Below, piece after piece: positions 2,403 to 18,530 of a stretch of DNA of 32,000 bases. Where the stretch lies: the NCBI GenBank assembly GCA_004284765.1, contig NQJD01000018.1, positions 16,304-48,303 of the forward strand, written 5' to 3'. Numbering within the stretch: position 1 is the stretch's first letter; the number at the start of each line of letters is the position of its first letter. The notes under the pieces were generated by a model. That model was not told the DNA's origin and did no database searches. It saw only the letters and a program-made list of their open reading frames with translations. Source of the DNA: Candidatus Electronema aureum (GTDB lineage: Bacteria > Desulfobacterota > Desulfobulbia > Desulfobulbales > Desulfobulbaceae). A program made the translations under genes and the position numbers.

Positions 2403-3263
2403 ATGGGACAAACTGTCATCCTTTTCCTCGCAGCCAACCCGGACGGCACAGTCTGTCTGCGTGTTGATCGGGAGATCAAAAAGATAGAGCAAGGTCTGCG
2501 TGTTGCCGAGCAGCGCGACTGCTTTGTCTTCAAGACCTGTCAGGCTGTGACTGTGCCTGATCTGCGCCGGGCCATGCAGCAGCACAGGCCGCAGATCGTC
2601 CATTTCAGCGGACACGGCGACGGTGCGGCAGGGTTGTGTTTTGAGAGCGGGCAGGGCAAAATCCAGTTCGTTCAAGACGAAGCTCTGGCAGCCTTTTTCA
2701 GCATGTTTTCCGCCGAGGTGCGCTGTGTTGTCCTCAATGCCTGCTATTCCGAGGTGCAGGCTGAAGCCATTGCCCGGCATGTTGATTATGTGATCGGCAT
2801 GAGCGATTCCATTACCGATCAGGCGGCAATCGCCTTTTCTGTTGCCTTTTATGAAAGTCTTGGCAATAGTGAATCTATTGAATCCGCCTACAAATTCGCC
2901 TGCGCTGAAATAGCCCTTCTCGGCCTGAAAGAAGAGCATATTCCCAAGTTGATCCGCCGCCATGCGGCTGAGGAACGGAACATCGTGCAACCCTTTGTCA
3001 AAAGCGAGATTGAACATATCCAGCGGCTCGTTGCGGAAGACAAGCTCGAAAAAGCTCTGGCCGAATTTTTGATTTTCGCCGCATCAGCCGATGCAGAGAT
3101 AAAGCAGGAGGTGATCGTGCATCAGGCGGCACTGGCCAAGGCAGGAAAAGAGCGGCGGAAAGGCTTGATGGATACTGACAAGGAAGAGCAGATGCGGAAT
3201 AAGGTTCGTTATGCGCTGCTGGAACTGCTGAACGAACAGGCGGCGCGGCAGTTTGAAAATTAA
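2403..3263 (+). CDS. minimal CHAT-like (caspase-fold) peptidase domain fused to a C-terminal helical adaptor (effector-associated-domain-like) module
   Basis: ILFLAANPDGTVCLRVDREIKKIEQGL, then QIVHFSGHG (His71, nt 2613-2615), then CVVLNACYS (Cys114, nt 2742-2744). This is the strand-His-Gly / strand-Cys dyad layout typical of CHAT domains. Residues about 203-280 form a helical module homologous to the next ORF. Confidence 0.7.
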   Translation: MGQTVILFLAANPDGTVCLRVDREIKKIEQGLRVAEQRDCFVFKTCQAVTVPDLRRAMQQHRPQIVHFSGHGDGAAGLCFESGQGKIQFVQDEALAAFFSMFSAEVRCVVLNACYSEVQAEAIARHVDYVIGMSDSITDQAAIAFSVAFYESLGNSESIESAYKFACAEIALLGLKEEHIPKLIRRHAAEERNIVQPFVKSEIEHIQRLVAEDKLEKALAEFLIFAASADAEIKQEVIVHQAALAKAGKERRKGLMDTDKEEQMRNKVRYALLELLNEQAARQFEN

Positions 3264-3280
3264 GCTGACAGTTTTCCCTT

Positions 3281-3559
3281 ATGCCTGCGGCAAATGACAT
3301 AAAAGAACGGCATTCAGAAGTGCAGATGCTGTTTGCTGAGGACAACATCAACGAAGCCGTCAAGCGGCTCATGGATTTTGTCCGTGATTTTTCGCAGGAT
3401 AACAGTGACAACTTGAACGAGGTGATTGTCATCAGCAGCAGTTTTAGCCGATTAGAGAAGGCGGAACGACGTGGGACGCTCAGTTATGACGAGGTGGATC
3501 AGAAACGAAATAAGCTGCTGTATCAGGCTCTCGATCTTATGGAGACTGTCATCGCATGA
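3281..3559 (+). CDS. stand-alone helical adaptor protein (same module as the CHAT protein C-terminus)
   Basis: The 92-aa protein aligns with CHAT residues 205-277: VQMLFAEDNINEAVKRLMDF..NEVIVISSSFSRLEKAERRGTLSYDEVDQKRNKLLYQALDLM versus IQRLVAEDKLEKALAEFLIF..QEVIVHQAALAKAGKERRKGLMDTDKEEQMRNKVRYALLELL. Its stop overlaps the next start (ATGA). Confidence 0.55.
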   Translation: MPAANDIKERHSEVQMLFAEDNINEAVKRLMDFVRDFSQDNSDNLNEVIVISSSFSRLEKAERRGTLSYDEVDQKRNKLLYQALDLMETVIA

Positions 3560-4812
3560 ACAAGGAGCAGGCAATGCAGGGTATTGAACAGGCTGCCGCA
3601 GACCTTCGTGCCGCTATTGCCAGCAATCCCGGAGAGCACGGCACTGGTCTGGTGCAGTTTGCTAACACATACGCCTTGAAGAGCAGTCAGCGGCATTCTG
3701 CGGTTCTTCTCAAGCTAAACTGGACCAAAGCAGCGGACGAGGAGCAGCAGCATCGTGTTCTCCAAGACATGCTGGCCTTGCTTGAGGAAATTGTTGCCGA
3801 CTCTGCCAGCGGCACGGCGGGCGGGGAGCCGCCGCTGAACCAACTCATTGTCCGCGCTCAGGAACATGTTCCTGAGCCGCCGCATGATGTAGTTTTCAGC
3901 TGCGAAAATCTCGGCAAAACCTACAAAAAATCCGGTTTTCAGCTCAACGGCGTGAATTTGCAGCTTCGCTTCGGCGAAATCACCGGCGTGGTCGGCGAGA
4001 ACGGCAACGGCAAAACCACGCTGTTCCGCATCGTTGCCGGTGAACTGCTGCATGATCAGGGCAGCATCGCATATCCGCTGTTCGGTCAGGACAGCGCGGC
4101 AAAAAAGGGCATCAACTGGATCAAAGTCAAGGAGCAGATTGCCTATGTGCCGCAGGAGCTGCCCAAGGTGTATGGCAAATTAGAGGAGATGCTTCAGTAC
4201 GAGGCCGCCATTCACGGCATCCGGGGCAAAAAAAATCTGCGGGAAGTGGATTTCATTGTCCAGCGGCTGGAACTGAGCGAGCACTTGGAAAAACGCTGGA
4301 AAGAGCTGTCCGGCGGCTTCAAGCTGCGTTTCGCCTTAGCCTGCGCCTTGGTCTGGAAACCCAAGCTGCTAATCATTGACGAGCCGTTGGCCAATCTTGA
4401 TTTCAAGGCCCAGCAGGTGGTGCTAAGAGATTTGCGCAATTTGGCGGAGAGTCTGCGCTATCCCATGTCTGTGCTGATTTCCTCTCAGCATTTGCACGAG
4501 GTTGAGGCGATTTCTGATCAGATCGTCTTCCTTGACAAAGGCAAGGTTGAATTCAACGGGCCGAAAGAGCAGCTTGGCGAGGAACGCCGTTGCAACACCT
4601 TTGAGATGCTGGTGTCCTGCAAAGAGGAAGAACTGCGTGAGCATCTCCGGCGGCTTGCGCCGCAGCGGATTCAGCATTCCGGGGTTTCTTATGTGGTCAC
4701 GCTGCCGCTGGCGGTGGATGGAAGTAGGCTGCTGCGGCATCTGCTGGAATGCGGCGTGGAGGTGGAATATTTCCGGGACATCAGCCGGTCAATCAAGCAG
4801 TTGTTTCATTAA
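3556..4812 (+). CDS. ABC-transporter-type ATPase with a roughly 110-aa helical N-terminal extension
   Basis: Walker A GENGNGKTT, Q-loop VPQE, signature LSGGFKLR, Walker B LLIIDEPLANLD, H-loop SSQHLHE, and a C-terminal domain of about 90 aa as in ABC-2-type ATPases. The first 110 aa are non-ABC, helical and acidic. Confidence 0.85.
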   Translation: MNKEQAMQGIEQAAADLRAAIASNPGEHGTGLVQFANTYALKSSQRHSAVLLKLNWTKAADEEQQHRVLQDMLALLEEIVADSASGTAGGEPPLNQLIVRAQEHVPEPPHDVVFSCENLGKTYKKSGFQLNGVNLQLRFGEITGVVGENGNGKTTLFRIVAGELLHDQGSIAYPLFGQDSAAKKGINWIKVKEQIAYVPQELPKVYGKLEEMLQYEAAIHGIRGKKNLREVDFIVQRLELSEHLEKRWKELSGGFKLRFALACALVWKPKLLIIDEPLANLDFKAQQVVLRDLRNLAESLRYPMSVLISSQHLHEVEAISDQIVFLDKGKVEFNGPKEQLGEERRCNTFEMLVSCKEEELREHLRRLAPQRIQHSGVSYVVTLPLAVDGSRLLRHLLECGVEVEYFRDISRSIKQLFH

Positions 4813-4829
4813 TTGGCAGAGCATTTACG

Positions 4830-5615
4830 ATGATTCCTATTTTTTTCAAGAAATTGGATCAGAATTTGAGGGTGAATTATCCGATAGTTTGGCGGACGCG
4901 AATTCACTATTTTTTCTGGTATCTTTTAATACTTTTAATGTTGACTTTCTTAGCGAAATTATTTAATTCAAATAAGCTGGATTTTTTATATAAATCAAAA
5001 GGAAATCAAGAACTTTGCATGATTATATTGACATTTCTGTCAATCTTTGTACTGCATCCGTTTTATCATCCAATCGGTGACAATCGATTAGTTAAATGTA
5101 TTTTTACTACATTATGCTATAGTTTATGTTTTTTTTCTATGTCGTCAATTATGATCCTGACCATATTACCACGTATAGATTTGTCATATTATATTTTAAT
5201 AAATATATCTACGGCTTTAATAGTTACAGTTTCTTCGTCACTTAGAAGAATAAGCGATGACAATATGAAGATTTTATCTTCGTGTTGTTTAAGTGTAATT
5301 TTTTTGTTTGCTTTCATGTTCATGATTTATTACATAAACGATACAACAATAAAATATAAATATAGTTATATATTTACAATACCTTTGATTACAATGTTTT
5401 ACATTGCATTATTTATCGTTTTATCGCGACGCATCGCATCTTTTGTATTTATGTTTTTAACATTCTTCATTCTTATTTTCTTTTTATTGATTCCAGAGAA
5501 TTTCTATTTTTTTTATCCAGCGGAAAAATTGAGAGTAATTTATCTGTTTATAGCATTCAATACTATGATTGCTTTTAAAGTGCTGATTCGATATATATAC
5601 TGGCCAAAGCCGTGA
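4830..5615 (+). CDS. polytopic membrane protein (about 7-8 hydrophobic segments), probable membrane partner of the ABC ATPase; no family recognised
   Basis: The ATG at 4830 lies 17 nt after the ABC stop. The track start at 4749 overlaps the ABC gene and is GC-rich, so it is unlikely. The protein has successive F/I/L/Y-rich 18-25-aa segments. The gene is very AT-rich, and its stop overlaps the rlmH GTG (GTGA). Confidence 0.6.
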   Translation: MIPIFFKKLDQNLRVNYPIVWRTRIHYFFWYLLILLMLTFLAKLFNSNKLDFLYKSKGNQELCMIILTFLSIFVLHPFYHPIGDNRLVKCIFTTLCYSLCFFSMSSIMILTILPRIDLSYYILINISTALIVTVSSSLRRISDDNMKILSSCCLSVIFLFAFMFMIYYINDTTIKYKYSYIFTIPLITMFYIALFIVLSRRIASFVFMFLTFFILIFFLLIPENFYFFYPAEKLRVIYLFIAFNTMIAFKVLIRYIYWPKP

Positions 5616-6076
5616 GATTCATCCTCCCCTTCCTCGGCAAAACCAAGGAAAGCTACCTTGATCACGGCATCCGCGACTACGCCGAACGCCTGCGCCGCTA
5701 CGTGCCGGTGGACATCAAGGTGCTGAAAGAGCCAGGCAAAAATGAGCCGGATGCGGTGCTCATGGCCCGCGAGGCGGATTTGCTGCTGAGTCAGGCTGCC
5801 GCAGCTTCTCTGCTCGTGGCCCTTGATCCGGCTGGCCGCGAGCAGACCTCAGAAGATATGGCCGCTGCTTTAGAAAGCTGGGAAAGCCGAGGTCTGCACA
5901 CTATCTGCTTTCTCATCGGTGGCCATCTTGGCTTAGACCCGCGTGTACGCCAGCAGGCCAACGCACTTTGGTCGCTCTCCCGCCTCACCTTCACCCACGA
6001 GATGAGCCGCTTCATCCTGATCGAGCAGCTGTACAGGGCCTGTTCGATCAAGGCCGGACACAAGTATCATCGATAA
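5612..6076 (+). CDS. rlmH: 23S rRNA (pseudouridine1915-N3)-methyltransferase RlmH (SPOUT)
   Basis: LIGGHLGLDP...WSLSRLTFTHEMSRFILIEQLYRACSIKAGHKYHR matches the conserved RlmH C-terminus. GTG start. Confidence 0.9.
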   Translation: MRFILPFLGKTKESYLDHGIRDYAERLRRYVPVDIKVLKEPGKNEPDAVLMAREADLLLSQAAAASLLVALDPAGREQTSEDMAAALESWESRGLHTICFLIGGHLGLDPRVRQQANALWSLSRLTFTHEMSRFILIEQLYRACSIKAGHKYHR

Positions 6077-8358: not shown

Positions 8359-9771
8359 TTATTTAAGCTGTTGTTCGCAGCGCGGACAGGGTTTAAAGCC
8401 TGCTGTCCGCGCCACTCTGACATTGATAAATTGCAAGGAGGATTGGGGACTGCGGTGCTGCGGGCAGTCGGGCAGATGAAAGAGGCGGGTTTCTGGGTTA
8501 GCATGAACGAGCAGGCCAAGACTGACTGGCAGCACGGGCCTCTTCCGCCGATGATGTTTTCTCTGCCAGCGGGCGGACAGCTTTTGCCACGGCTTGAGCA
8601 GCATGGCCTCCAGTAGCCAGCGGCCAGCGGCGGTCAGCGGTTCAGGCAATACAGGCCGCTCTTGCTCGACTCGGTGAAAGATAAACAGCACCAGCACCGC
8701 AAACAGGGCATTGGGCAGCCAGAGACCGATGAACACCGGTACAGCCCGGTCTTCAGCCATCACTTGGCCAATGGTAGAAATTATGTAGTAGAGCACAAAG
8801 AAAGCTAATCCCAGCGGAATACCAATCGCCTTACGGCCCAACCCAGCCTGAAGACCGAGCGGCAAGCCAAGCAGACTGAGGATCAGGCAACCAACCGGCA
8901 TGGCCAAGCGATGATGATACTCGCTCATGAAAGTGATCACATCCTGAGGATGCGCGTCAGGACGATGAGCCTCTGCCAAGAGCTGCTCCTGCGACATGCT
9001 GCTTTTACTGAGCTGGGTGACATCGTCACCGTCAATCTTCGTGGGTGGCTTGAGCGGAATGCTCAACTGGTAGCGACTGAAACGGACGGTTTGACCGTCA
9101 AAGCCGCTGGTGCTGTGTAGGGTACCGTCGTGTAGTACGATGGTGACGGCCATCCGGCTGATATCAGCCTGCATCCGACCGTCTTTGGCCATGATGATGA
9201 TTGGCTGCTGACGACCCCGCATGTCTGAGACATAAACCCCCCGCCAAGCCCCGTCTTGATCTGTCTCATCAACATAGACTACCACCTCGCCCAAGGCTTC
9301 AGTGAACTTCTTCTCTTTAATCCCCTTGTCGATCTTCTCCTTAGCTAACTGATACATGAGCTGGCGCATGGCAATCTCACCTGCTGGGATCAAGCGGACA
9401 GAGAAATAACCGGTCAATGTCGCAATCGCGGTAGCCAAAAGCACCACGGGCGGCAGCATCTGACGCAAACTGATACCACAGGCTTTGAGGGCCAGCATCT
9501 CGCGATCATTGGTCAGGCGGGTGAAACCAATGATCACCCCAGTCATCCCGGCCATCGGAATGACATAGAGCAGGAGATGGGGAAAGATGTACGAGAAGAG
9601 ACGAATGAAGTCAGAGAGGCCGATGCCTAAGTCCAGCACGATTTCCAGTAAAGGAATCAGCCGAACGAGAAAGAACACGCTGTACAGGATGAGAAAACTG
9701 GCGAAAAACGGTGCCAGCAGCTCAGATGCAACGTAGCTGTACAGCAGCGGGGACAGGCCGTTACGGCGCAT
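8359..9771 (-). CDS. LptF/LptG-family LPS export permease with a C-terminal Ada-type zinc-ribbon-like extension
   Basis: YjgP/YjgQ-type N-terminus (LLYSYVASELLAPFFASFLILYSVFFLVRLIPLL), a periplasmic beta-jellyroll-length insert, then 3 C-terminal TM segments. The tail is FHLPDCPQH...ARTAGFKPCPRC. Confidence 0.8.
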   Translation of the reverse strand: MRRNGLSPLLYSYVASELLAPFFASFLILYSVFFLVRLIPLLEIVLDLGIGLSDFIRLFSYIFPHLLLYVIPMAGMTGVIIGFTRLTNDREMLALKACGISLRQMLPPVVLLATAIATLTGYFSVRLIPAGEIAMRQLMYQLAKEKIDKGIKEKKFTEALGEVVVYVDETDQDGAWRGVYVSDMRGRQQPIIIMAKDGRMQADISRMAVTIVLHDGTLHSTSGFDGQTVRFSRYQLSIPLKPPTKIDGDDVTQLSKSSMSQEQLLAEAHRPDAHPQDVITFMSEYHHRLAMPVGCLILSLLGLPLGLQAGLGRKAIGIPLGLAFFVLYYIISTIGQVMAEDRAVPVFIGLWLPNALFAVLVLFIFHRVEQERPVLPEPLTAAGRWLLEAMLLKPWQKLSARWQRKHHRRKRPVLPVSLGLLVHANPETRLFHLPDCPQHRSPQSSLQFINVRVARTAGFKPCPRCEQQLK

Positions 9772-15154: not shown

Positions 15155-15254
15155 GCTTGACTTGAAAGGGATTAAGGAGCAGAATGCGACTCATCATTTC
15201 CCGACAGATGGTTGTTACCATTCTCGGAGAAAAAGGGGAAGCCCTTTTCCGCGC
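15155..15254 (+). promoter_or_regulatory. promoter plus conserved leader module, copy 1 (upstream of the helicase gene)
   Basis: TTGACT at 15157-15162, a 17-nt spacer, then CAGAAT at 15180-15185. A 55-nt conserved block follows at 15200-15254, containing the hairpin AAAAGGG-GAAG-CCCTTTT. The 31-nt promoter block is 31/31 identical and the 55/56-nt block about 91% identical to the copy at 18612-18711. Confidence 0.6.
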
Positions 15255-15275
15255 AAAAAAAACAAGCTTTTCATC

Positions 15276-18200
15276 ATGCCAAAAGCCCTCCATCCCAAAG
15301 CCGCCGCCTTTGTCAGCCAGAATTTTTTTGTCGGACTGACTTCTTTTGCCGAACTGGAAAACCGCATCGCCGCTCTGCCTGACAATCAGTCTCGCGGCGA
15401 TGCCTTTGAAGTTTTTGCAGAAGCGTACTTATCCACGCAGCGCAGGCATGAGGCAGCGCATGTCTGGCCGTTGAATGCGGTTCCAAGTGCTGTGCTTCAG
15501 CGGCTCAATTTGGGGAGCAAAGATTACGGCATTGACGGCGTGTTCCAAACGCAGCTTGGCCAGCTCAACGCGTATCAGGTGAAATTCCGCACTGACCGGC
15601 CTGCGCTGACATGGCGCGAGCTGTCCACGTTCATGGGACTGGCGGACAGTCCGCAGATTGGCAGCCGAGTTTTGATCACCAACTGCGATGACTTGGCATC
15701 AGTTCTCAACAACCGGCAGGGATTTTTCTGCATTCGCGGCTCAGACTTGGACGAGCTGGAAGCGGATGATTTCCGCGCCATCGAAGCATGGCTGGCAGAT
15801 TCGGCTTTCACAGCGCGGAGAAAAACGCCGAAACAGCATCAGCAGGAAGCATTGGCCGCGCTGCTGCCTGCGCTGGAACAGCATGACCGCGTTTCCGCAA
15901 TCATGGCCTGCGGCACCGGCAAAACCTTAGTCGCGCTGTGGGTTGTCGAGCAGATGCAGGCTGACCGGGTGCTGGTGCTTGTTCCCTCGCTGGCTTTGCT
16001 GCGGCAGCTACTCCATGAATGGCTGCGTGAAACCAGCTTGCCTAATCTTGCTTATCTCTGCGTCTGCTCCGACAAAACAGTGACGGACGGCGTGGACTCT
16101 ATTTCCACGGCGCAGTCTGATCTAGATTTTCCTGTTTCCACCGATGCCGCCAATGTGCGCGGATTTCTTGACGCGCCGTTTGCAGGCCGGAAAATTGTCT
16201 TATCCACCTATCAGTCAGCGGATGTGGTGGGGAAAGCCTTGCGGGAAGGCGAGGCGTTTGATCTGGCGATTTTCGATGAAGCGCATAAAACCGCAGGCCG
16301 GGAGGGGCGCAATTACGCCTTTGCCTTGGACGATGCTAATCTGCTCATCCGCAAGCGGCTATTTTTCACCGCCACGCCGCGCCATTACAATCCGCAGCAG
16401 AAAGACAGCGAAGGCGAGGCGCAGCTTGTCTTTTCCATGGATAAGCCGGAAGTGTACGGCCCGCAGGCATATCGTTTGACCTTTTCCGAAGCTGCTCGGC
16501 AAGACATCATCTGCGGCTACAAGGTCATCATTTCGGTGATCACTTCGGATATGGTGACAAATGAGCTGCTCAGTAAAGGCGAAGTGATGGTGCAGGGCGA
16601 TGCCGTCCGCGCCCGGCAGGTCGCCAATCAAATTGCCCTGCGCGATGCCATTGAGAAATACGGAGCAAAGAAAATCTTCACCTTCCATAAAACGATTGGC
16701 TCTGCCGCGTCTTTTGTCGCCAAGGGCAGCGAGGGCATCCGCACTCATTTGCCGGATTTTGAGACCTTTCATGTCAGCGGCAAGATGGCCACTGCCCAGC
16801 GTGAACGGGAAATGCGCGACTTCAGGGCTGCGGCCCGCGCTGTCATGTCCAACGCCCGTTGTTTGACCGAAGGCGTAGACGTACCTGCCGTGGATATGGT
16901 CGCCTTTCTTTCGCCAAGGCGCAGCCGGGTGGATATTGTGCAGGCCGCTGGCCGTGCCATGCGCCGGGCTGATGGCAAGACGGTCGGCTATGTGCTGGTG
17001 CCGCTTTATGTGGAGCAGGCTGCCGGTGAAACGGTCGAGGAGGCTGTCAGCCGCTCGGAGTTCACTGAAGTTTGGGATGTGCTGAACTCGCTTCAGGAGC
17101 AGGATGACGTGCTGGCTGAGATAATTCGTCAATTTGGCGAGCAGAAAGGGAGCGGCAAAGGACATGATGACAGCCGGATGAGTGAGCGCGTGGACTTTGG
17201 CGGCCCGCGTCTCAGCTTGGAAACGCTCCGTGCTTCTGTTGCAACCCGCTGTTTGGACAGTCTTTGCTCATCGTGGGATGTTTGGTTTGGCAAATTGAAG
17301 GCATTCAAAGAGCGTTTTGGTCATTGCAATGTTGAAACTGGCTGGGAGGAAGACCCTGCTTTAGCAAGTTGGGTAAGTGCTCAACGAACACGTCGGAACA
17401 AAGGACAGCTTTCGCCGGAGCGGGTTCAATTGCTGGAGGAACTTGGCTTTGTTTGGGATTTTCAAACACAAAAGAGCCAAGAGACGTGGATAAAATGGTA
17501 TCGTGAGCTGGAAAGCTACACCAGAGAACATGGTCATCCGCATGTTCCGCAGAGTAGGCCCAAGACTAAATTGGCAAATTGGGTCATGATTCAAAGGGGT
17601 TGTCGTGATAAAAGTTGCTACGGCAATCCACCACTGACAAAAGAGCAGATTGAATTGTTAGACAGACTTGGCTTTCGTTGGAACGTACACGAAGAAAAAT
17701 GGCAGGAGCAGCTTGAACAGCTCAAGCTGTTTAAGGAGCAGAACGGGCATTGCAACGTTGAATTGATGGCTGATGACGGTGATAAATTGCTCGTCTGGGT
17801 AAATAACCAACGCTCAATGTTGGCACAAGGCAAATTAGATGAGGGGCGAAAAGAAAAGCTTGATGCACTTGGCTTTTCTTGGGTTGCAGAATTCTATGAT
17901 CCAAAATGGGAAAAAATGTATGACCGCCTGAAAAATTATCATTCCGAGCATGGTGACGCAGACGTACCAGATGGCCGAACAGAAAACCATCAGCTTGCCA
18001 CTTGGGTTATCAATCAGCGGCAACGGAGGAAAAAGGGACTTGTCCCGGATGAGCAAATTCAACGACTGGATGCGCTCGGCTTTACTTGGCAGCACCGAGA
18101 ACGAGGTGCTTGGGAAGATCGCTATCAAGAGCTGATTGAATTTAAAGAGAAGAATGGTCATTGCAATGTGCCGTTTGGATACAAGGAAGTTCCAAAGCTC

Positions 18201-18530
18201 GGTGCATTTGTAAATAATTCGCGAACACAAAAAGCTGATGGACGCTTGAGCCAAGAGCGAATTGAGCTGCTGGAGCAAATCGGTTTTCAATGGGCAGGTG
18301 AAGTGATTACTGACAAATGGGAAGACCGTTATCTCCAATTACTGTATTTCAAAGAAGAGCACGGGCATTGCAAGGTGCCGTATAATTATCCTGACAACCC
18401 GCAGTTAGGCAAATGGATTAGCAATCAGCGGCAGAAGCGAAAACAGAATAAACTTACGCCGGAGCGGGAACGCCTGCTGGATGAAATCGGCTTTCTGTGG
18501 TCGGCAATTCCAGAGTGCGACGAACTGTAG
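15276..18530 (+). CDS. PD-(D/E)xK-like nuclease domain + SF2 DEAH helicase + six C-terminal helicase-associated (HA) repeats
   Basis: I prefer the ATG at 15276 (MPKALHPK...), because the track start at 15162 is a TTG inside the promoter module. The N-terminus has GDAFEVFAEAYL...DYGIDGVF...YQVKF, an Mrr/restriction-endonuclease-like pattern. Helicase motif I is ACGTGKT, motif II is FDEAHK, and motif VI is the QAAGRAMR region. The C-terminus is the 6x HA repeat array. Confidence 0.85.
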   Translation: MPKALHPKAAAFVSQNFFVGLTSFAELENRIAALPDNQSRGDAFEVFAEAYLSTQRRHEAAHVWPLNAVPSAVLQRLNLGSKDYGIDGVFQTQLGQLNAYQVKFRTDRPALTWRELSTFMGLADSPQIGSRVLITNCDDLASVLNNRQGFFCIRGSDLDELEADDFRAIEAWLADSAFTARRKTPKQHQQEALAALLPALEQHDRVSAIMACGTGKTLVALWVVEQMQADRVLVLVPSLALLRQLLHEWLRETSLPNLAYLCVCSDKTVTDGVDSISTAQSDLDFPVSTDAANVRGFLDAPFAGRKIVLSTYQSADVVGKALREGEAFDLAIFDEAHKTAGREGRNYAFALDDANLLIRKRLFFTATPRHYNPQQKDSEGEAQLVFSMDKPEVYGPQAYRLTFSEAARQDIICGYKVIISVITSDMVTNELLSKGEVMVQGDAVRARQVANQIALRDAIEKYGAKKIFTFHKTIGSAASFVAKGSEGIRTHLPDFETFHVSGKMATAQREREMRDFRAAARAVMSNARCLTEGVDVPAVDMVAFLSPRRSRVDIVQAAGRAMRRADGKTVGYVLVPLYVEQAAGETVEEAVSRSEFTEVWDVLNSLQEQDDVLAEIIRQFGEQKGSGKGHDDSRMSERVDFGGPRLSLETLRASVATRCLDSLCSSWDVWFGKLKAFKERFGHCNVETGWEEDPALASWVSAQRTRRNKGQLSPERVQLLEELGFVWDFQTQKSQETWIKWYRELESYTREHGHPHVPQSRPKTKLANWVMIQRGCRDKSCYGNPPLTKEQIELLDRLGFRWNVHEEKWQEQLEQLKLFKEQNGHCNVELMADDGDKLLVWVNNQRSMLAQGKLDEGRKEKLDALGFSWVAEFYDPKWEKMYDRLKNYHSEHGDADVPDGRTENHQLATWVINQRQRRKKGLVPDEQIQRLDALGFTWQHRERGAWEDRYQELIEFKEKNGHCNVPFGYKEVPKLGAFVNNSRTQKADGRLSQERIELLEQIGFQWAGEVITDKWEDRYLQLLYFKEEHGHCKVPYNYPDNPQLGKWISNQRQKRKQNKLTPERERLLDEIGFLWSAIPECDEL
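17274..18506 (+). repeat. six tandem coding repeats of about 63-70 aa (helicase-associated HA domain)
   Basis: The pattern W..xx..L..F...(H/N)GH..VP......LG.WV..QR.....G.L...R...L..lGF.W recurs six times (WDVWFGKL.., WIKWYREL.., WQEQLEQL.., WEKMYDRL.., WEDRYQEL.., WEDRYLQL..). At nucleotide level GG(T/G)CATTGCAA(T/C/G)GT recurs four times. Confidence 0.85.

Follow-up and report, generated by a model that had tools for sequence, protein, structure and literature searches.

Bacterial systems that couple a core NTPase to its effectors through paired adaptor domains have been described by Kaur, Burroughs, Iyer and Aravind, and EAD11 is one of the effector-associated domains (EADs) of their work (eLife 2020, PMC7159879; eLife 2021, PMC8195603). 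EADs are small terminal adaptors found both on the core NTPase component and on the effectors, and they are proposed to pair mutually, so that the core is coupled to its effectors (PMC7159879, PMC8195603). The cores described in these papers are soluble: vWA-MoxR with VMAP or iSTAND, GAP1 GTPases and STAND NTPases (PMC7159879, PMC8195603). The vWA-MoxR ternary systems (VMAP, iSTAND) and the GAP1 GTPase systems, with EAD-coupled effectors, occur mainly in multicellular or filamentous bacteria, and the published trend is that EAD copies from adjacent genes are mutual closest relatives (Kaur et al. 2020, PMC7159879). Here, we analyze a stretch of 32,000 nucleotides (the window) from the cable bacterium Candidatus Electronema aureum (contig NQJD01000018.1, positions 16,304 to 48,303), in which a CHAT protein ending in EAD11 is followed by a free-standing EAD11 protein, an ABC ATPase and a polytopic membrane protein. 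We propose, with a probability of roughly 55%, that the two modules are paralogous EAD11 adaptors in a compact four-gene conflict cassette (for immunity or programmed death), with the ABC/membrane complex acting as the sensor or switch that recruits EAD11-tagged effectors. We are far surer of the architecture than of the direction in which the signal runs.

The effector gene (positions 2403-3263 of the window, on the + strand like every feature of the cassette) was recognized with Pfam and PADLOC; it encodes 286 residues, with CHAT at about residues 1-175 and EAD11 at the C-terminus. This effector-borne module, which we call E-type, covers CHAT residues 202-278 (3006-3236). The free-standing, S-type protein has 92 residues (3281-3559) and was delimited from Pfam EAD11, an AlphaFold2 model and its orthologues. 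A sequence-only reading of this DNA had noticed that a module of about 75 residues occurs twice, as the CHAT C-terminus and as a separate open reading frame (ORF), and both copies proved to be Pfam EAD11 (PF19964, gathering score 26 bits), lying where that reading had placed them. CHAT residues 202-278 score 55.1 bits (E 7.5e-15) and residues 11-88 of the 92-residue ORF score 56.9 bits (E 2.1e-15), both exceeding the gathering score. BLASTP aligns the two modules over 74 columns with 30% identity and 57% positives (E 2e-10). The same reading had suggested a comparison with shuffled controls, and here the similarity is significant: the pair reaches a Smith-Waterman score of 102, whereas 2000 shuffles average 28.1 +/- 5.1 (z = 14.4) and none of them equals it. 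The 92-residue protein is identical (100%) to CDV28_11819 of Candidatus Electronema aureum, and it is a genuine gene, because orthologues of 92-102 residues are conserved in many taxa and its ratio of nonsynonymous to synonymous substitution rates (dN/dS) is 0.13-0.20. Its AlphaFold2 model (mean confidence, pLDDT, 90.3) consists of four helices (H3-19, H23-37, H42-64 and H69-91). The NEVIV stretch, which had been taken for a strand-like core, begins helix 3 and is not a strand. EAD11 is thus small, all-alpha and non-enzymatic, and it is terminal: C-terminal in the CHAT protein, N-terminal in TIR and ABC fusions, or the whole protein.

Among 1.84 billion cluster representatives, searched exhaustively with a profile, 3289 EAD11 proteins were found at E <= 1e-3; an earlier homologue search with a mixed EAD11 alignment had yielded 36 short proteins only and missed the fusions. 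Among 46 of the longer matches, scanned against Pfam for partner domains, ABC_tran (6 proteins), TIR_2 (6), CHAT (5) and AAA_16 (4) were found, along with caspase, LRR, peptidoglycan-binding, subtilase, trypsin, SEFIR and EAD7 domains, and the linked NTPases include nSTAND1, NB-ARC, KAP and AAA_16. The sequence-only reading had seen in the module an adaptor with relatives on CHAT, TIR and NTPase proteins, and this is borne out by the fusions of EAD11 to CHAT, TIR, caspase, STAND NTPases and others. The domain also occurs in tandem arrays of up to 6-7 copies. Large proteins with 4-7 tandem EAD11 (P0039, 1276 aa; P0045, 1574 aa; P0049, 1133 aa; P0043; P0042), some without any other Pfam domain and others with LRR or caspase domains, may be multivalent scaffolds for EAD11-tagged partners. 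Two genes in Saprospiraceae (L014, 5998-7716; L015, 525-2288) encode proteins of 572-587 residues with EAD11 at the N-terminus followed by TPR repeats. No ABC gene is linked to them in the available sequence, and they may be sensor or scaffold partners in an EAD11 network.

A resemblance to animal death-fold signaling had also been suggested. The death-like fold (CARD, PYD, DD, DED, bDLD) is a six-helix Greek-key bundle. EAD11 has four helices; a Foldseek search of its model against the PDB gave a best match of E 0.72 and no death-fold entries, and in the EAD11 part of the HHpred network supplement of Kaur et al. (2021, PMC8195603) the domain recovers itself alone, without a link to a death-like domain. 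With four helices, no PDB match better than E 0.7 and no profile link, a connection to the death fold is not supported.

The repeated module itself is catalogued and ordinary, and its significance lies in what it is wired to. Two constant partners that lay outside the sequence-only reading are the ABC ATPase and the membrane protein. In 9 distinct genome loci besides the window, the gene next after the S-type copy encodes one and the same ABC orthologue, and in 10/10 metagenome loci and 3 more sampled places the S-type copy lies upstream of that orthologue or is fused to it. The S-type is found beside the ABC gene in Desulfobulbaceae, gammaproteobacteria (symbionts) and Bacteroidota. The junction is often an ATGA overlap, as at 3556-3559 of the window, where the S-type stop lies over the first possible ABC start. 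A gene of the membrane family stands 3' of the ABC gene in every locus with a contig long enough, and all three genes are present in the Bacteroidota loci L011-L013. S-type EAD11, ABC ATPase and membrane protein are therefore the constant core of the cassette, and this core occurs in three phyla. The best 150 cluster representatives include 71 short proteins, and 67 of these are S-like; a scan of viral contigs found no relatives. In the cluster representatives P0081, P0094, P0101 and P0161 and in the metagenome locus L027, EAD11 is joined to the ABC ATPase through a linker, proline-rich in some, and the same membrane-protein family comes next in each. Where sequence upstream of such a fusion is available (L017-L019), no separate EAD11 gene is present (3/3); the contigs of L016 and L027 begin 94 and 27 bases ahead of the fusion gene. 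Two loci show irregular genes. The S-type frame of L013 (5986-6276), the most divergent at 31% identity, has no ATG, GTG or TTG upstream of domain residue 31, which suggests a non-canonical start or a decaying gene. In the metagenome contig L028, the ABC orthologue (419-1645) is split into two ORFs (419-919 and 920-1645), either a pseudogene with a frameshift or stop codon or an assembly error.

The S-type and E-type copies form separate lineages. S-type proteins of cable bacteria and gammaproteobacterial symbionts share 67% identity, and S-type and E-type share 25-31%. Adjacent copies are therefore not each other's closest relatives, in contrast to what the EAD principle would have: S-E identity is 25-31%, against 59% for E-E and 67% for S-S across bacterial classes. 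Since the neighboring copies diverge, contrary to the published trend, the comparison points to a heterotypic S:E pair. The EAD11 of the ATPase fusions is 33-46% identical to S-type versus 21-31% to E-type, and because the fused copy groups with S-type, a Rosetta-stone argument would make S-type the ATPase's adaptor. Judged from sequence, the S-type EAD11 is probably the adaptor of the core itself, whether as a separate protein or fused to the ATPase.

The ABC ATPase (3556-4812, 418 aa) was assigned from Pfam ABC_tran, NCBIfam, its motifs, AlphaFold2 and Foldseek. It consists of a four-helix N-extension, a disordered linker (87-109), a nucleotide-binding domain (NBD, 112-340) and an alpha/beta regulatory-type domain (346-418). 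It matches PF00005 (ABC_tran) with E 3.5e-25, and among NCBIfam models it scores best with PQQ-system, GldA and DrrA-type ATPases, which places it closest to ABC-2/DrrA/GldA-type NBDs. The ABC motifs are intact (Walker A 147-154, Q200, LSGGF from 251, Walker B D275/E276 and H312). The AlphaFold2 model, built on an alignment of 6 sequences, has a pLDDT of 80.4, and Foldseek matches it to ABCA4/7/3/1, TM_1403, NosF and PmtCD (E 4e-18 to 1e-16 for ABCA4/7/3, TM_1403, NosF and PmtCD). By motifs and by fold, it is an NBD of the ABC-2/type V-like transporter kind. Two starts can be considered for this gene, the ATG at 3556 in the ATGA overlap, which is kept in L001, L004 and L012, and the ATG at 3574, preceded by a good Shine-Dalgarno sequence, AAGGAG.

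The N-extension of the ATPase (residues ~3-84, 3562-3807) is itself EAD11-like, as judged from hhalign, hidden Markov model (HMM) matches in orthologues, MAFFT and AlphaFold2. Aligned pairwise with either EAD11 copy, the ABC N-terminus shows no significant similarity (z 1.9 and 0.7), and a homologue search with this region returned one fragment. The relation emerges with profile-profile comparison and intermediate sequences: hhalign aligns the N-extension with a profile of 210 EAD11 domains with 82% probability (E 1.1e-5, score 31.0), against 9.6 +/- 1.7 for column-shuffled controls (maximum 15.4, 0/200 reaching 31.0) and 15.1 for the reversed one. In the metagenome orthologues L022 and L023, the N-extension matches an HMM of the same 210 domains directly (E 7.8e-8 and 1.3e-5). 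In a MAFFT alignment, the region coincides with the true EAD11 that natural EAD11-ABC fusions carry, except for a gap of 12 residues at the ERRG loop. The extension of about 85 residues is probably a third, degenerate EAD11-like module without the ERRG loop, and the cassette would then carry three EAD11-type modules, the third degenerate. In the window, the core copy has a gene of its own, directly adjoining that of an ATPase with this degenerate N-terminus; orthologous systems have true EAD11-ABC fusions, in which an S-type domain stands in place of the N-extension on a proline-rich tether of ~90 residues.

The last gene of the cassette (4830-5615) encodes a polytopic membrane protein of 261 residues (M at 4830), or 288 if it starts at 4749, with ~8 predicted transmembrane (TM) helices. 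It matches nothing in Pfam, NCBIfam or PADLOC, and thus no permease family of Pfam or NCBIfam; its conserved parts are its ends, an N-terminal LDxxLRxxYPIVWRTRIHYF and a C-terminal RYIYWPKP. Across loci, the membrane proteins range from 261 to 745 residues, and those of 261-606 residues that were analyzed in detail have 6-12 predicted helices. The family motif, PxhWR[ST]RhHY, lies directly ahead of the first helix and is likely an NBD-coupling element. Five of the forms longer than 450 residues (461-591 aa) have a second, internal copy, and the 261-residue form of the window and the 273-288-residue forms of L017 and L019 have one. This would suit an assembly of the transporter kind, in which each ATPase dimer has two transmembrane modules. 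We also considered whether the short genes (261-288 aa) are truncated pseudogenes, and rejected this, given both conserved ends, ~8 TM helices and the short forms in L017 and L019.

It is also the most variable part of the cassette. Compared by blastn with the closest relative, L006, the window is 94.4% identical over 2408-4813, from the CHAT start to the ABC stop, shows no similarity over 4814-5576, and is again 85% identical over 5577-5683, which comprises the final 39 bases of the gene plus the beginning of rlmH. The L006 allele encodes 483 residues versus 261 in the window, and the N-terminal motif and the C-terminal RYxYWPKP alone are kept. Similarly, between L006 and L004 (Electrothrix laxa) the membrane protein is 49% identical and the ABC ATPase 84%. 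From these two comparisons, the membrane subunit is the fastest-changing part of the cassette, and its gene body has been swapped between close relatives. Fast change and body replacement are the pattern expected for a recognition element.

The effector, in contrast to the three core genes, is interchangeable. In the window, its CHAT domain matches Pfam PF12770 (E 2e-09) and PADLOC 'chat' (E 6.5e-18), the predicted dyad H71/C114 is intact (HFSGHG begins at residue 67 and NACYS at 112), and the gene has a dN/dS of 0.11-0.20. By its HMM match and His-Cys dyad, the 286-residue protein is predicted to be a minimal CHAT (caspase-like, clan CD) protease. CHAT-EAD11 is the effector of cable bacteria, EAD11-TIR that of symbionts and metagenomes, and EAD11-CHAT that of L031. 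Upstream of the three core genes, CHAT-EAD11 occurs in Electrothrix laxa and Desulfobulbaceae UBA5173, and EAD11-TIR in tubeworm endosymbionts and a Chromatiales metagenome-assembled genome; the metagenome and additional sampled loci have EAD11-TIR or EAD11-CHAT, either upstream or 3' of the membrane gene. The E-type EAD11 of the window CHAT protein shares 59-60% identity with the EAD11 at the N-terminus of the tubeworm-symbiont TIR protein and 63% with the Electrothrix laxa CHAT copy. Across these loci, the effector is CHAT or TIR with EAD11 at either end, and the core stays the same. One EAD11-TIR protein (L001, 6967-7860) has a weak PADLOC match over residues 21-180 to the single-gene candidate PDC-S66 (E 3.3e-5), and an EAD11-TIR-like protein may therefore already be in the candidate-defense catalogue without its ABC partners.

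How could such a cassette work? Every part of it is under purifying selection (dN/dS 0.07-0.35). We suggest that ABC ATPase and membrane protein assemble into a complex resembling a type V ABC transporter, built as (NBD)2(TMD)2, where TMD is the transmembrane domain, or as (NBD)2 with a tandem TMD. This complex would be a membrane-located, ATP-dependent sensor or switch, with its fast-evolving membrane subunit facing the trigger, for example a phage or envelope damage. Once activated, it would gather E-type-tagged effectors by means of the EAD11-like N-termini of its ATPase dimer and the S-type adaptor docked on or beside them, through putative helical-bundle contacts between EAD11 paralogues. 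Clustering or proximity could then activate the CHAT protease (or the TIR NADase), and one cell of the multicellular cable-bacterium filament would be sacrificed. In this scheme, the free-standing protein would be a bridging adaptor, following the logic of ASC, FADD or MyD88, and not a decoy.

Several observations weigh against this proposal. Plain HMM search with the window's own N-extension is not significant (E 0.3-0.5), so that the third module is detected here by profile-profile comparison only, and the four EAD11-like helices that AlphaFold2 predicts for it, followed by a disordered linker, may be biased by fused orthologues in the alignment. The replaced body of the membrane gene (4814-5576) was delimited by GC content as well as by blastn against L006, and the low GC content of this gene (0.27 in a background of 0.52-0.55; 0.24-0.38 over 4814-5576, versus 0.52-0.58 in the flanks) comes partly from a composition rich in Ile, Phe, Leu, Tyr, Asn and Lys. 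The S-type protein and three membrane proteins of the family give 0 matches in PADLOC-DB 2.0. The triad of L012 and L013 has no adjacent effector, and neither have the fused-type loci L017-L019. Finally, some proteins that are sensors in their own right also have EAD11, namely the STAND NTPases and LRR proteins found here and the sensor-type LRR-AP-GTPase given in the EAD11 entries of Kaur et al. (2021, PMC8195603).

Because EAD11 is found on such sensors, the ABC/membrane pair could be an output and not the sensor. It would then damage or depolarize the membrane, and EAD11 would be a general wiring with which STAND or LRR-AP-GTPase sensors encoded elsewhere recruit CHAT, TIR and ABC/membrane outputs alike. 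The fusions of EAD11 to nSTAND1, NB-ARC, AAA_16, KAP and LRR, the LRR+AP-GTPase+COR architecture of Haliscomenobacter and the five triad loci without an adjacent effector speak for this explanation, which we consider unlikely but still a serious contender. However, neither the window cassette nor its relatives offer another candidate sensor, and the CHAT and TIR proteins are a bare enzyme plus an adaptor. Moreover, effectors are usually conserved, yet no other part of the cassette varies as much as the membrane subunit, and a constant triad with variable enzymes is the published signature of a core.

The role of the free-standing copy allows another interpretation, in which S-type is a negative regulator that caps the effector EAD11 or the ATPase N-terminus until it is displaced, in the manner of the CARD-only and pyrin-only proteins to which the sequence-only reading had likened it. 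The S-type is indeed a single-domain paralogue encoded between effector and NTPase, and the ATPase of the split systems retains its own EAD11-like N-terminus, so that a separate tethering copy is not obviously needed. Yet CARD-only and pyrin-only decoys are recently derived, closely similar to the domain they inhibit and accessory, and S-type EAD11 is none of these: it is ~30% identical to the effector copy (25-31% over all S-E pairs) and belongs to an old lineage conserved across phyla, with 67% S-S identity across bacterial classes. It always occurs with the ABC gene or fused to it, and persists without an adjacent effector in L012 and L013. In addition, the fused S-type sits on a ~90-residue proline-rich tether that resembles a recruitment arm, and the ATPase N-extension lacks the (K/A)ERRxG loop common to S-type and E-type. 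This pattern reads as that of a core-side adaptor and not of a recently duplicated decoy; the likeness is not supported, and we regard negative regulation as distinctly improbable.

It could also be argued that this is no conflict system, and that the cassette encodes an ABC exporter with a tethered processing protease docked by EAD11, comparable to the peptidase-bearing bacteriocin exporters. Such an exporter would be in keeping with the transporter-type NBD, the polytopic membrane protein encoded after it and the position of the cassette among housekeeping genes. We find this highly unlikely, as TIR replaces the protease in orthologous cassettes, no precursor peptide gene is evident, the other EAD11 partners are typical conflict-system domains and close relatives differ by a replaced membrane-gene body. 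That the two modules resemble each other by chance or shared helical composition, or that the 92-residue ORF is not a gene, has the low pairwise identity (30%) as its sole support and can be dismissed in view of the z of 14.4, two copies above the Pfam gathering threshold and an ORF conserved across phyla with a dN/dS of 0.13-0.20.

The EAD11 domain and the logic of paired adaptors are already known. What appears undescribed in the searched literature is the ABC/membrane core of EAD11: full-text searches (EAD11, EAD + ABC, cable-bacteria CHAT/TIR) found no description of it, although prior notice is possible. It is tempting to go one step further and see in the triad an undescribed, widespread membrane-embedded immune or death core, the missing core of EAD11, whose variable subunit would sense a cue from the envelope or from a phage and pass it on through a three-tier heterotypic EAD11 relay (the ATPase N-terminus, then the free adaptor, then the tag on the effector) to CHAT or TIR; we put this forward tentatively, as a possibility on the doubtful side. 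In any case, the constant partner is an ABC ATPase of the transporter type together with a polytopic membrane protein, and the body of the gene for the latter is exchanged between cassettes that are otherwise almost the same. If it is a sensor, it would provide a membrane-level trigger for caspase-like or TIR cell death in filamentous multicellular bacteria. Moreover, with three diverged EAD11 paralogues of separable roles, the cassette offers a compact four-gene model for bacterial adaptor pairing and is suited to distinguishing homotypic pairing, as has been proposed, from heterotypic pairing.

The neighborhood of the cassette deserves a short comment. Downstream, the GTG start of rlmH (5612-6076) overlaps the stop of the membrane gene (GTGA). 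In L006, the first 24 rlmH codons are kept after the membrane gene (8998-9069) and the sequence then diverges; ahead of the CHAT gene, too, the window and L006 do not agree. From both, we conclude that the surroundings of the cassette have been rearranged. The remainder of the window is mostly housekeeping genes. A protein of 1122 residues (15162-18530) with an Mrr-like restriction endonuclease domain, a ResIII/DEAD helicase and six helicase-associated (HA) domains is possibly a separate restriction or defense gene ~10 kb from the cassette.

How does the cassette compare with known systems? With the EAD11 of Kaur et al., it shares a small, all-helical, non-catalytic terminal domain with an effector copy and an NTPase-tied copy in one operon; here, in contrast, the core copy is a separate protein, adjacent copies are not closest relatives and a third, degenerate copy is predicted on the ATPase. 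The EAD11 entries of the supplementary material contain one architecture, LRR+AP-GTPase+COR+EAD11 (Haliscomenobacter), and the positional table counts a single EAD11 architecture (PMC8195603); the term 'ABC' is absent from the main texts of both EAD papers (PMC7159879, PMC8195603). The vWA-MoxR and GAP1 systems likewise have a constant NTP-dependent core with swappable caspase-like or TIR effectors coupled through paired EADs, and the window too comes from a multicellular, filamentous organism, a cable bacterium. The difference is in the core, which here pairs an ABC ATPase of the transporter type with a polytopic membrane protein; no vWA, MoxR, STAND or GTPase was found in the cassette or in the other larger window ORFs scanned. 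The death-fold adaptors (CARD, PYD, DD, DED; ASC, FADD, MyD88) share the logic of a helical module on both platform and effector plus an adaptor-only protein, but their fold is unlike the four helices of EAD11, for which neither Foldseek nor profiles give a link.

Among ABC transporters, the closest comparisons are BceAB-BceS, a sensing ABC system, and the type V exporters (NosFY, PmtCD, TM_1403 and ABCA1/4/7; ABCA/ABCG-like). The latter share with the cassette the sequence and fold of the NBD, the catalytic motifs, the C-terminal regulatory domain and a downstream membrane partner; here, however, the partner has no match among known permease families, the NBD has an EAD11-like N-terminus and an EAD11 adaptor, and no substrate is apparent. 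The multi-gene systems of PADLOC-DB 2.0 do not include the cassette, which gives generic chat, TIR and ATPase-motif matches only. The ABC ATPase weakly matches mad3 (E 1.6e-20) and AriA, PtuA, LmuB and GajA (E 2e-4 to 9e-3). PARIS AriA, Septu PtuA, Gabija GajA, Lamassu LmuB and MADS mad3/mad8 are likewise ABC-type ATPases in a defense context. AriA, PtuA, GajA and LmuB are soluble ATPases paired with nucleases, and the matches to AriA, PtuA, GajA, LmuB and mad3 span generic ATPase motifs only, whereas the NBD of the cassette is of the transporter type and comes with EAD11 coupling and a partner in the membrane.

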